This document shows, piece by piece, positions 10,642 to 12,689 of a DNA stretch of 64,000 bases (position 1 is its first letter; each line of letters opens with the position of its first letter). Source of the stretch: a virus. Under the pieces are notes generated by a model. That model saw only the letters and a list, made by a program, of their open reading frames with translations. It made no database searches and was not told where the DNA came from. Made by a program: the position numbers and the translations under genes. The DNA is taken from positions 9,659-73,658 of the IMG/VR virus record IMGVR_UViG_3300025326_000023, one strand, 5' to 3'.

Positions 10642-10800
10642 CTCGCATTGCCAAAGTTTTCACTGATCCACTGCGCCGCGCTCAGTGAAGTACTCCAGGC
10701 GGCGGCTGGTTCCCTCGCATTGCCAAACCTTTCAGTCATCCACCGCGCCGCCACAGCGCTCATTCCTCGCCTTGCCAAACCTCTTACTTGCGACTGCGCC
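10642..10800 (-). CRISPR. Divergent mini CRISPR array (3 repeats; 36-nt and 16-nt spacers) overlapping the 3' end of the Cas12f-like gene
   Basis: Repeats at 10642-10677, 10714-10749 and 10766-10800, of the form CTCGC(A/C)TTGCCAAA...(T/C)GCGCC, related to the main repeat. Confidence 0.8.
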
Positions 10801-12093
10801 CGCGGCGCTCGCGCTTTGTGTGCCGGGGTCCGCCTGATCCTCAGGGATCGCCTCGCCGCGTTTCCACATTTTGACGGTCACCGCGATGGACTGCCGGGCG
10901 GCGGCGTTTTTCAGGTCCTGGCAGAAGCGGGTCCAGTCCCAGGTCAGCCCGGCGGCGGCGAACCAGGAGTGTTCGCGTAGCGGCCCGCTCGGCTCGTGGT
11001 AGATCAGCGTGCCCACGTTAGCTTTCAGGCACTGCCGGACGATATCTGCAATCATGTGCCGCAGGACTTCTTGGCGCATGTTCCGTTCCTGTTGCCGGCG
11101 GCGTCGCACGGCGGCGTCGATTTTCCGGCGGCCGTGTCCTGCGCCCATGCGATTCCGGTAGCGCCAGCCGATCTGTTTGCGCAGGCCGATCAGTCGTGCG
11201 GTCTGCGCTTTGAGATAATCGCCGTCGCCCACGAACCACTCGTCCCCGCCCGGCAGGTCCAGGCGGAAGGGCCTCTGGGCGTGCTTGGCGGCGCGGGCCT
11301 GAGCCGGGGCTGGGGGCAGCTTGCCGTTATGCTGCCCGTTGCCGTTGGGGTCCGCGCGGCGCGGCGAGTCGGCTTCTGCCTTGGCTTTTTCTGCGGCCGG
11401 GATGCGTGGCCAGAGTTCGGCCACGATCTCCGAGCGCGGGTCGGTCTCGAACGTAAACGGCACGTGCCAGAACCAGATCCCGTCGCGTTCGACCAATTTG
11501 GAGTCGGCCAGTTTGAGTTCCCCGCGGGCCAGCCGGTGCAGCAGCAGTTTGTAGCCGCTGGGCATACCGCCCAGGCAGACCTGCACCGTGAGGGCTGGGA
11601 TGGCGCTGGTGGGCCGGTTGACGGTAACGGTCAGCGTGTCGGTGAAGCGGACCGTGGTATGGGCGTTGTGGAGGGGTATTTCCAGGGTGGTAAAAAAGGG
11701 CGGGCGGTCCTGGTAGTCCAGGATAGCGTGCAGTCGCCGCAGCCGGCGGCCTTCTTCGGTGGCCCCGCGGCGCCAATCCTGCTTGGCGGTCAGATTGCTC
11801 CAGAGCGCCGCGGCCAGCATGGTGCACTGGGTGGTGCCCAGTTCAGGGACGGCGGCGCGCAGGGCGTGGTAGATCTTGGTGGACTCGGACTTTTCAGAAT
11901 CGGGGTCCACGTCTTTGCGTTTGACCAGCCGTTGCGACTGGCGCGGCGATTCCGGCTTGCCGCGCTGGCGCAGCAGCCAATCCTCCAGGCCAGCGTTGCG
12001 GGCTCGGCGGCAGAGTTGGCCGATGCTCGCCAGCGTGGCGCTGGTGGCCTCGTCGTCTTCGAGTTTCAGTCTCAAAACTGTGAAGGATTTCAT
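10732..12093 (-). CDS. cas12f: Cas12f/TnpB-family (type V-F/V-U3-like) effector, apparently nuclease-dead and C-terminally truncated (453 aa)
   Basis: AAGGAGG RBS before ATG at 12093; blocks RLARGELKLADSKLV..DGIWFWHVPFTFE, GAGHGRRK, IVRQCLKANVGTLI and WDWTRFCQDLKNAAARQSIAV match Cas12f1 blocks as I recall them; adjacent to a CRISPR array; GIDLG, zinc finger and NAD motifs absent. Confidence 0.8.
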   Translation of the reverse strand: MKSFTVLRLKLEDDEATSATLASIGQLCRRARNAGLEDWLLRQRGKPESPRQSQRLVKRKDVDPDSEKSESTKIYHALRAAVPELGTTQCTMLAAALWSNLTAKQDWRRGATEEGRRLRRLHAILDYQDRPPFFTTLEIPLHNAHTTVRFTDTLTVTVNRPTSAIPALTVQVCLGGMPSGYKLLLHRLARGELKLADSKLVERDGIWFWHVPFTFETDPRSEIVAELWPRIPAAEKAKAEADSPRRADPNGNGQHNGKLPPAPAQARAAKHAQRPFRLDLPGGDEWFVGDGDYLKAQTARLIGLRKQIGWRYRNRMGAGHGRRKIDAAVRRRRQQERNMRQEVLRHMIADIVRQCLKANVGTLIYHEPSGPLREHSWFAAAGLTWDWTRFCQDLKNAAARQSIAVTVKMWKRGEAIPEDQADPGTQSASAAGAVASKRFGKARNERCGGAVDD

Positions 12094-12143
12094 GGGCCTG
12101 CGCCTCCTTTTTCTTCGCGCCCTTCTGGGCACGCATTACCTCG

Positions 12144-12689
12144 CTCGCATCACCAAGCCTCTTAGTCATCTATTGCGCCACATCGGCAGGGGGTGGGCCG
12201 TGACGCATAGCGACCCCTCGCATCACCAAGCCTCTTAGTCATCTACTGCGCCACCAGTGGGGGCCCCAAGGCCCCTATCCCATTGCTGACTCGCATCACC
12301 AAGCCTCTTAGTCATCTACTGCGCCACCGAGTAGCCTCGCGGCAATCCGGCAGGACACAAACTCGCATCACCAAGCCTCTTAGTCATCTACTGCGCCGAA
12401 GTGGCACCGGTTCAGCGATTGCTGAGCCAAGCGGGCCACTCGCATCACCAAGCCTCTTAGTCATCTACTGCGCCTCTCGAATCGGCGAAACCGTATTGAT
12501 GGGAAGGCCCTCGCATCACCAAGCATCTTAGTCATCTACTGCGCCGAATTGCTCCACCGACTGACTGGGTTCATGGGAGACCTCGCATCACCAAGCATCT
12601 TAGTCATCTACTGCGCCGAATTGCTCCACCGACTGACTGGGTTCATGGGAGACCTCGCATCACCAAGCATCTTAGTCATCTACTGCGCC
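12144..12689 (-). CRISPR. CRISPR array: 8 x 36-nt repeats, 7 spacers of 35-41 nt
   Basis: Repeat (+) CTCGCATCACCAAGCCTCTTAGTCATCTACTGCGCC starting at 12144, 12217, 12290, 12362, 12439, 12510, 12582 and 12654; spacers 6 and 7 identical; strand inferred from the surrounding operon. Confidence 0.97.

Follow-up and report, generated by a model that had tools for sequence, protein, structure and literature searches.

A phage-borne, nuclease-dead Cas12f-like effector with CRISPR arrays, a candidate tracrRNA, two partner genes and a possible guide against a planctomycete bubCD gene

The IMG/VR virus record IMGVR_UViG_3300025326_000023 is a contig of 73,658 nt, approximately 63% complete, and we have analysed a 64,000-nt stretch of it (positions 9,659 to 73,658), which we refer to as the window and in whose own coordinates all positions below are given. 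On its minus strand the window encodes a nuclease-dead, C-terminally truncated Cas12f-like effector of 453 amino acids (aa; 12093..10732), accompanied by CRISPR arrays, a candidate trans-activating CRISPR RNA (tracrRNA) and two partner genes that we call F2 and F1. The fold of the effector, its missing catalytic parts, its conservation, the structure of the RNA, the covariation of its pairing, the gene linkage and a spacer match were all computed here. We interpret the locus, with a probability of about 0.6, as a type V-F-like, tracrRNA-dependent module of temperate phages that binds DNA without cutting it and silences genes of the host or of rival elements.

The effector gene starts with an ATG at 12093 that follows the sequence AAGGAGG, and its product was assigned by hidden Markov model (HMM) searches, an AlphaFold2 model, Foldseek and profile alignment. 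Searched as a single sequence, it gives weak but consistent HMM matches to OrfB_IS605 (E 0.003) and guided_TnpB (E 0.0018), and it matches the PADLOC models Cas12u3 (E 1.6e-7) and Cas12f (E 3.9e-7). A profile built from 30 relatives finds OsCas12f with an E-value of 1.5e-7 and AsCas12f with values of ~1e-5 to 1e-6; the PDB entry named 'nuclease-deactivated Cas12f' is matched by phmmer at E 0.044 and by the family profile at E 8.9e-4. When the AlphaFold2 model (predicted local distance difference test score, pLDDT, 88.9; predicted template modelling score 0.76) is compared with known structures by Foldseek, the best matches are all Cas12f, with AsCas12f structures 8dzj and 8j12 at E ~1e-14 (best 1.2e-14; probability 1.0; template modelling, TM, scores of 0.54-0.60) and the dead Cas12f (dCas12f) structure 9n9c at E 2e-13 with a TM score by target of 0.65. 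TnpB, Cas12k and Cas12m fall below Cas12f, Cas12m2 ranking 40th or lower with E ~5e-5 and a TM score of ~0.3. Fold and profile both bear out the likeness to Cas12f proposed in a first-pass annotation made from the letters of the window, and they support the view that the effector descends from Cas12f and has the predicted TnpB/Cas12f fold with its WED-REC-RuvC core.

That annotation had also read AELWP at the RuvC-I position and a histidine in place of the RuvC-II glutamate, and the profile alignment agrees on both. The ILGVDMG segment of OsCas12f aligns over AELWPRI, placing R230 in the column of the RuvC-I aspartate, which varies across the family without ever holding an acidic residue. At RuvC-II, IQMED aligns over LIYHE, with the glutamate column on H366 and E367 adjacent to it; beside this column is the motif [YF]xEP, which is conserved throughout the superfamily and occupies effector residues 365-368 (window ~10990-11001). 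The family ends at a strand GI.V.V after the RuvC-II helix, approximately 65 residues short of the end of Cas12f, and the missing residues are those where the zinc finger and RuvC-III would be, so that the early end first noticed in the window protein is true of all of its relatives. The RuvC D-E-D triad is not intact, two of the three catalytic positions being lost family-wide together with the zinc-finger/RuvC-III region. The low-complexity insertion of ~45 aa after the RuvC-I strand (residues ~231-272), also noticed on first pass, is real and is found in this copy only. The last ~25 residues of the window effector are encoded by decayed repeat DNA, because degenerate repeats overlap the 3' end of its open reading frame (ORF).

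A word-indexed search recovered at least 57 effector clusters at 90% identity, 375-426 aa long, 37-60% identical and nearly all metagenomic, and an exhaustive search with E-values up to 1e-3 yielded 190 representatives at 50% identity. The 30 aligned relatives all lack an acidic RuvC-I residue and end before the zinc finger and RuvC-III. Twelve distant relatives of 420-557 aa lack the RuvC-I aspartate, any CxxC finger and RuvC-III, and all of them keep [YF]xEP. Pairwise nonsynonymous divergence (dN) is 0.2-0.57 and synonymous divergence (dS) is saturated, with dN/dS at or below 0.36 wherever it could be computed, which supports purifying selection on the effector family as judged from these sequences. 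No bacterial copy of the effector was found in a scan of genome contigs. The names V-O/V-P and Cas12o/Cas12p were taken from the literature as candidates and could not be tied to the family.

The identical truncation of at least 57 clusters of relatives, together with purifying selection, argues that the effector is not a decay product, a point for which the first-pass annotation had already argued. One could still regard the locus as a functionless remnant of a decaying nuclease system, and the window offers some grounds for this in an effector tail read from decayed repeats and in a rearranged gene order (described below). We strongly disfavour this explanation and give it almost no credence: the ORF is intact across the family, the RNA and partner genes are conserved and covary with the effector, and contigs of several soil metagenome runs agree completely wherever they span the locus, four soil runs showing no variation in the array, although arrays break the assemblies.

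The principal array of the window (12689..12144, minus strand) has eight 36-nt repeats with a period of ~72 nt and seven spacers, 35-41 nt in length, of which the first two are identical and six are therefore unique; the three distal repeats carry one loop-position variant. Its last repeat ends 50 nt before the effector ATG, which confirms the early observation of a 453-aa ORF lying some 50 nt behind an eight-repeat array. Arrays on both sides of the effector had also been claimed, and a remnant array of two to three degenerate repeats and one 36-nt spacer is indeed present downstream (10642..10800, minus strand), overlapping the 3' end of the effector gene. Two of its repeats are clear (10749..10714 and 10677..10642) and a third (~10800..10765) was recognized by eye; it is probably the leftover of an ancestral array that stood behind the effector and F1. 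An HMM search of the whole contig found no Cas1, as had been stated on first pass for the window, although this search did not cover cas2 or cas4.

We compared the flanking DNA of five IMG/VR loci and 18 metagenome loci. In nearly every locus with enough flank an array adjoins the effector gene, always in the orientation of that gene; it lies downstream in most loci, upstream in the window and in loci L002, L016 and L021, while L013 and the window have arrays on both sides. The 36-nt repeats are homologous to those of ten other arrays; the alignment needs no gaps, and the 3' end, TG.GAG, is invariant in it. Array sizes across the loci range from 2 to 19 repeats, and one phage that was sampled three times had the same array of 13-14 repeats every time. 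On viral contig L034 a distant relative is found, with an effector of 460 aa accompanied by an F2-like gene and an array of 19 repeats. A miniature array was seen at L014:7190-7420, consisting only of 17-18-nt repeat ends (the part that pairs with the tracrRNA) and spacers of 14-19 nt, and it may represent a step toward short regulatory guides.

A scan for complementarity to the repeats found short anti-repeats ~0.5 kb upstream of the effector gene, on the same strand, in four loci, and the conserved element around them, CTCGCA..AATGGCGAG..CCTCTCGCC.., occurs in nine distinct loci. In the window this candidate tracrRNA of ~150 nt (14369..14218, minus strand), recognized by its conserved motif, covariation and repeat pairing, lies ~2.1 kb upstream of the effector. 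Its parts are a long closing stem, a hairpin, internal stems and a 3' anti-repeat. The hairpin loop CUCGCA pairs with the 3' end of the repeat, UGCGAG, and the anti-repeat AUCGCCAAGCC (14245..14234) pairs with the repeat segment GGCUUGGUGAU. RNAalifold predicts 30 base pairs, and compensatory changes occur in 20 of these. The share of paired cells is 91.7%, compared with 30-43% when the partners are slid, and the observed values were never attained in 500 shuffles. The hairpin loop covaries with the repeat 3' end, CUCACA occurring with UGUGAG and CUCUCA with UGAGAG. For the anti-repeat:repeat duplex the mean energy is -20.1 kcal/mol for cognate as opposed to -10.4 kcal/mol for non-cognate combinations, and the cognate repeat is the best in eight of eight loci. 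No Rfam family matches the locus. On these computations the guide is predicted to be a dual tracrRNA:CRISPR RNA (crRNA) with two pairing segments, both covarying with the local repeat.

A phage that encodes its own tracrRNA could conceivably use it, together with the effector, as an anti-CRISPR decoy, disabling a host Cas12f by sequestering the type V crRNAs or tracrRNA of the host, and a precedent has been proposed for phage-encoded dead Cas9 (PMC11656645). We think this very improbable, given that the phages possess arrays themselves, with as many as 14-19 repeats and with unique spacers, and that the tracrRNA covaries with the phage's own repeat. Moreover, the ~820 Planctomycetota genomes searched overall contain no significant match to the repeat, the repeat-like hits being short and near the chance level.

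F2 (13560..13027, minus strand) encodes a helical, coiled-coil-like protein of 177 aa. It is located between the tracrRNA and the effector or array in nine of nine loci, with products of 145-185 aa that are 34-59% identical, and its AlphaFold2 model (pLDDT 88.5) has an N-terminal helical domain (residues ~13-105) followed by a long C-terminal helix resembling a coiled coil (119-176). The F2 family comprises 51 clusters, and for many of these the longest contig is equal in size to one listed for an effector cluster. Beyond coiled coils, F2 has no match in Pfam, PHROG, PDB sequences, or Foldseek comparisons with PDB, BFVD or VIA-align, and the ESM Atlas provides only a weak lead to DUF3102. F1 (12968..12672, minus strand) encodes in the window a Zn-ribbon protein of 98 aa with the motif CxxC, 23 residues, CxxC and then RRYV..ARVSQLPSE, and the gene was found in eight of eight loci, with products of 85-100 aa. 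In the other seven loci the start of F1 overlaps the effector stop codon, an arrangement of translational coupling, and the array then follows; the window is the exception, with F1 upstream of the array and not behind the effector. The last codons and stop of F1 in the window come from the first repeat, and in several other loci the end of F1 likewise runs into the first repeat. Its position where the Cas12f finger would be suggests that F1 is that finger in detached form, although no similarity to OrfB_Zn_ribbon, to the Cas12f/TnpB zinc finger or to Cas12f chains could be detected. From their conserved linkage, F2 and F1 are likely to be two dedicated protein partners of the effector.

The conservation of two dedicated proteins with the effector, one of them translationally coupled to it in seven loci, raises the alternative that the dead effector serves as an address and that F2 and/or F1 supply the activity. 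Such recruitment could be of RNA polymerase for activation, as in the precedent of dCas12f with sigmaE (PMC13472631), or of a host nuclease, helicase or recombinase. However, Pfam, PHROGs, PDB and BFVD reveal neither an enzymatic nor a sigma-factor signature in F2 or F1, no scanned neighbouring ORF, these two included, has any Pfam match to a sigma factor or otherwise, and the sole target found lies inside a coding region and not upstream of a gene. We regard guide-directed recruitment as quite unlikely.

Host candidates were picked using a ClpC-N-like ORF match: the phage carries two stand-alone ClpC N-domain genes (26493-27762, minus strand), one of which matches a Planctomycetota genome with 81% identity along 140 aa. 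When the array was compared by BLAST with 401 genomes belonging to the same order as the closest host candidate, a single match stood out. The spacer that occurs twice (12653..12618 and 12581..12546, minus strand) matches bubCD of a planctomycete genome (G428:C1:1263024-1263059) at 86% over 36 nt (30-31 of 36), with an E-value of 2.2e-4 per genome. From spacer position 2 onward 22 of 23 nt are identical, and the 5' flank of the site, GGTTT, is T-rich. Over twelve codons (spacer ELLHRLTGFMGD, genome ELLHRLTGFMGE) five of the six base differences are synonymous by our own count. The target ORF contains the Pfam domains Prok-JAB and ThiF, its neighbours are Prok-E2_E and DUF6527, it matches the PADLOC E1-E2 models, and its best PDB match is Citrobacter BubCD (E 1.5e-39); by sequence, the predicted target is the bubCD (JAB-E1) gene of a Type I Bub operon. 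Citrobacter BubCD differs at the matched stretch, indicating that the match is specific to a planctomycete bubCD rather than to a general E1 motif. The protospacer is located ~85% into bubCD, and the crRNA would be antisense to the mRNA, pairing with the coding strand. The first-pass suggestion that host defence genes are repressed thus acquires a single spacer match in its favour, while repression itself stays presumptive.

The remaining spacers gave no comparable match. None of the other window spacers matches G428, or the 20 kb around its Bub operon at the level of DNA or peptide, and a 401-genome sample of the phylum gave chance-level spacer matches only. Spacer 7 has partial matches in three genomes (G131, G556 and G726), but their surroundings are unrelated and they have no reading frame in common, and they were rejected as chance. 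The spacer of the remnant array (10678-10713, minus strand) has many weak, GC-rich partial hits, 83-96% identical over 25-36 nt, in 20 of 401 genomes. The spacers match neither their own contig nor related phage loci beyond chance, nor do they match GenBank phages, and IMG/VR contains no exact 21-26-mer of the six unique window spacers.

These last results bear on a further alternative, that the guides serve competition between elements and are aimed at rival prophages, integrative elements or defence islands, with Bub operons riding on such elements. The selected effect would then be silencing or the blocking of replication, as proposed for the Cas12r of a Thermus phage and for plasmid Cas12m. 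The spacers of phage Cas12r mostly target integrative elements (bioRxiv 10.64898/2026.04.20.719267), and the module described here lies 0.5-3.5 kb from an integrase in the window, L002 and L005. Nonetheless, the absence of exact 21-26-mer spacer matches among IMG/VR contigs and of matches in related phage loci counts against this explanation, and the setting of the G428 Bub operon was analysed as far as its neighbouring genes; we judge the explanation unlikely.

For the binding-only silencing module, the order of events would be as follows. The array would be transcribed together with the operon, and the tracrRNA would pair with each repeat twice, through its hairpin loop with the repeat 3' end and through its 3' anti-repeat with the preceding 11-13 nt. 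The truncated effector would bind this dual RNA and be guided to matching DNA beside a T-rich 5' motif, probably acting together with the Zn-ribbon protein F1 and the coiled-coil protein F2, and the complex would stay bound, so that the target gene could not be transcribed. One guide or more, including the one that occurs twice, would be directed against the bubCD gene of a planctomycete host, which lies in a ubiquitination-like operon of Bub Type I. Because Bub operons are suspected of acting against phages, the module would be a programmable silencer of defences or of competitors. RNA loading, DNA binding without cutting, repression and the roles of the two partner proteins are steps that we infer.

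Several observations weigh against this reading. The E-value alone predicts ~0.2 chance hits over the ~820 genomes; the case for bubCD rests on the codon-position pattern. There is a plausible target for one of the six unique spacers only, and the match is imperfect and comes from one genome. A protospacer so far into the gene is not in the obvious place for a promoter block, and Bub operons have been proposed, not demonstrated, to act in anti-phage immunity (PMC11601596). No listed RNA run contains the locus. The conserved E367 is immediately beside the RuvC-II column, and the alignment register could be off by one. Finally, the partner proteins could confer an activity other than passive blocking.

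The module has a characteristic layout. The usual gene order in relatives is tracrRNA, F2, effector, F1 and array, whereas in the window it is tracrRNA, an extra ORF, F2, F1, array, effector and remnant array. The extra ORF (13614..14201, minus strand, from the ORF list) lies between the tracrRNA and F2, encodes a Trp/Asp-rich product of 195 aa and has no Pfam or PHROG match; the gap between tracrRNA and partner gene is too short for it in eight other loci, and it is therefore likely to be an insertion specific to the window. Flanking genes vary among the phages and the module is kept intact. In L001 it sits between terminase and portal, far from the integrase. In L003 (8332-13714) the whole module, from tracrRNA through F2, effector and F1 to the array, stands between two halves of a RecD2-like helicase gene, with one flanking ORF containing OB_YrrC and HHH_RecD2 (the N-terminal domains of RecD2) and the other AAA_30 and UvrD_C_2 (the helicase core). 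It looks as if the module had been inserted into the RecD2-like gene, which hints that the cassette itself is mobile.

Five viral contigs, one of them 100% complete, have no match above cut-off to a DDE transposase (rve, TnsB or MuA-type), and tyrosine integrases are present on viral contigs instead. The differing flanks and the lack of a DDE transposase suggest that the module behaves as a self-contained cassette. They also bear on the notion of guided integration or transposition, in which the dead Cas12f would work with the neighbouring tyrosine integrase in the manner of a CRISPR-associated transposon (CAST). An integrase lies near the module in three phages and V-F CASTs occur in Mu-like elements (PMC11656645), but type V CASTs, whether V-K or V-F, require the DDE transposase that is missing from these contigs. 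In L001, moreover, a long distance separates module and integrase, in L003 the module stands within a helicase gene, and tyrosine integrases have no known RNA-guided partner. We find this notion hardly credible.

The phage itself was detected in approximately ten soil and sediment metagenome runs, and no GenBank phage matches the locus. Profile scans of the window ORFs gave a weak portal match on the contig and a tyrosine integrase at 14838-15749. Convergent with the effector is an ORF of 1612 aa (5714-10552, plus strand), a homolog of which lies 5 kb upstream of the L005 module; it has no Pfam or PHROGs match and contains, by eye, an intein-like insert with C...HN-type ends and an endonuclease-like middle. 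AT-rich heptamer tracts (AATGAnn-like) flank the module on both sides (10560-10640, 14160-14210 and elsewhere), as they do many other gene junctions of the phage. A scan for promoters and terminators found nothing exceeding the shuffled expectation.

Among known systems, the closest precedents are other derivatives of Cas12f. A CRISPR-associated dead Cas12f with a predicted role in repression has been noted in Bacteroidota chromosomes (Hoffmann et al., Nature 2026, PMC13472631, Extended Data Fig. 1). It too is derived from Cas12f, is cut short at the C terminus so that part of the RuvC site is missing, and lies beside CRISPR arrays; it is, however, chromosomal and comes from NR, whereas the present family is phage-borne and almost entirely metagenomic. 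To the solved dCas12f the present family has weak sequence similarity, and it adds a separate tracrRNA and two partner genes. The dCas12f-sigmaE system (PDB 9n9c) shares a truncated Cas12f fold, binding without cutting (which we presume for the phage module) and a dedicated protein partner. That partner is an operonic rpoE, an extracytoplasmic-function sigma factor with a C-terminal extension, and there is no sigma Pfam match in the present neighbours; its guide is a single chimeric RNA without tracrRNA and its arrays are mostly lost, in contrast to the tracrRNA and multi-spacer arrays described here. The active Cas12f1 nucleases (AsCas12f, OsCas12f and Un1Cas12f) are the best structure and profile matches and are of similar size, with adjacent arrays, a dual guide in which tracrRNA and crRNA pair through two segments, and a T-rich 5' flank, which is seen here at one candidate target. 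From these the module differs in lacking the RuvC-I aspartate, the zinc finger, RuvC-III and an adaptation module, and in having F1 and F2 in addition.

Binding-only type V systems are known to silence their targets, as described for Cas12m (PMC11013384) and for V-C/V-M (PMC12669027), and Cas12m occurs on plasmids and in some prophages (PMC11013384, PMC11656645, PMC12669027). Cas12m and Cas12c resemble the present system as we interpret it, being type V effectors whose interference consists in binding DNA and blocking transcription, with no cleavage. They belong to another branch of Cas12, with a weaker fold match (E ~5e-5), a larger size and a retained C-terminal region. Neither is known to use a tracrRNA or accessory proteins. 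TldR is likewise a miniature RNA-guided repressor from TnpB/Cas12 stock that has lost RuvC function and been C-terminally truncated, but it comes directly from transposon TnpB and regulates host flagellin genes with one omega-RNA-like guide at the 3' end of its gene, without arrays or tracrRNA, whereas the present guides come from arrays and a trans-encoded upstream RNA. Taken together, Cas12m, Cas12c, TldR and dCas12f-sigmaE establish that RNA-guided regulation can operate through binding alone. Among the V-U groups of Altae-Tran et al. 2023 (PMC10691335) several are inactivated, and one of the groups, V-U24, is described as a CRISPR-linked Cas12 with a non-canonical RuvC-I and an associated helix-turn-helix protein of unknown function (PMC10691335). 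Going by this description, V-U24 may be the same as the present effector family with F2. In the literature consulted, the phage setting, a tracrRNA with two covarying segments, the two subunits and a guide against a putative host immune operon appear to be new.

Nuclease-dead derivatives of Cas12f and TnpB are a recent and fast-moving topic, and the known cases are chromosomal regulators (TldR and dCas12f-sigmaE) or plasmid silencers (Cas12m). If our interpretation is correct, a large phage-borne clade shows that viruses too use binding-only CRISPR, a mode that would suit temperate phages because the genome into which they integrate must not be cut. The truncated effector and the Zn-ribbon gene may then record the loss or detachment of the C-terminal part of Cas12f, and a DNA binder of ~390 aa that uses a dual RNA and comes with accessory subunits of natural origin could be a compact scaffold for CRISPR interference. 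The bubCD match would provide a concrete and testable link to a suspected but unproven immune pathway. More tentatively, as something possible rather than probable, the temperate phages of Planctomycetota may possess a natural CRISPR-interference machine composed of a dead Cas12f, a Zn-ribbon protein, a coiled-coil subunit and a tracrRNA, the arrays of which switch off host immune operons without damage to the chromosome, and the doubled bubCD guide may be the first biological sign that Bub acts against phages.

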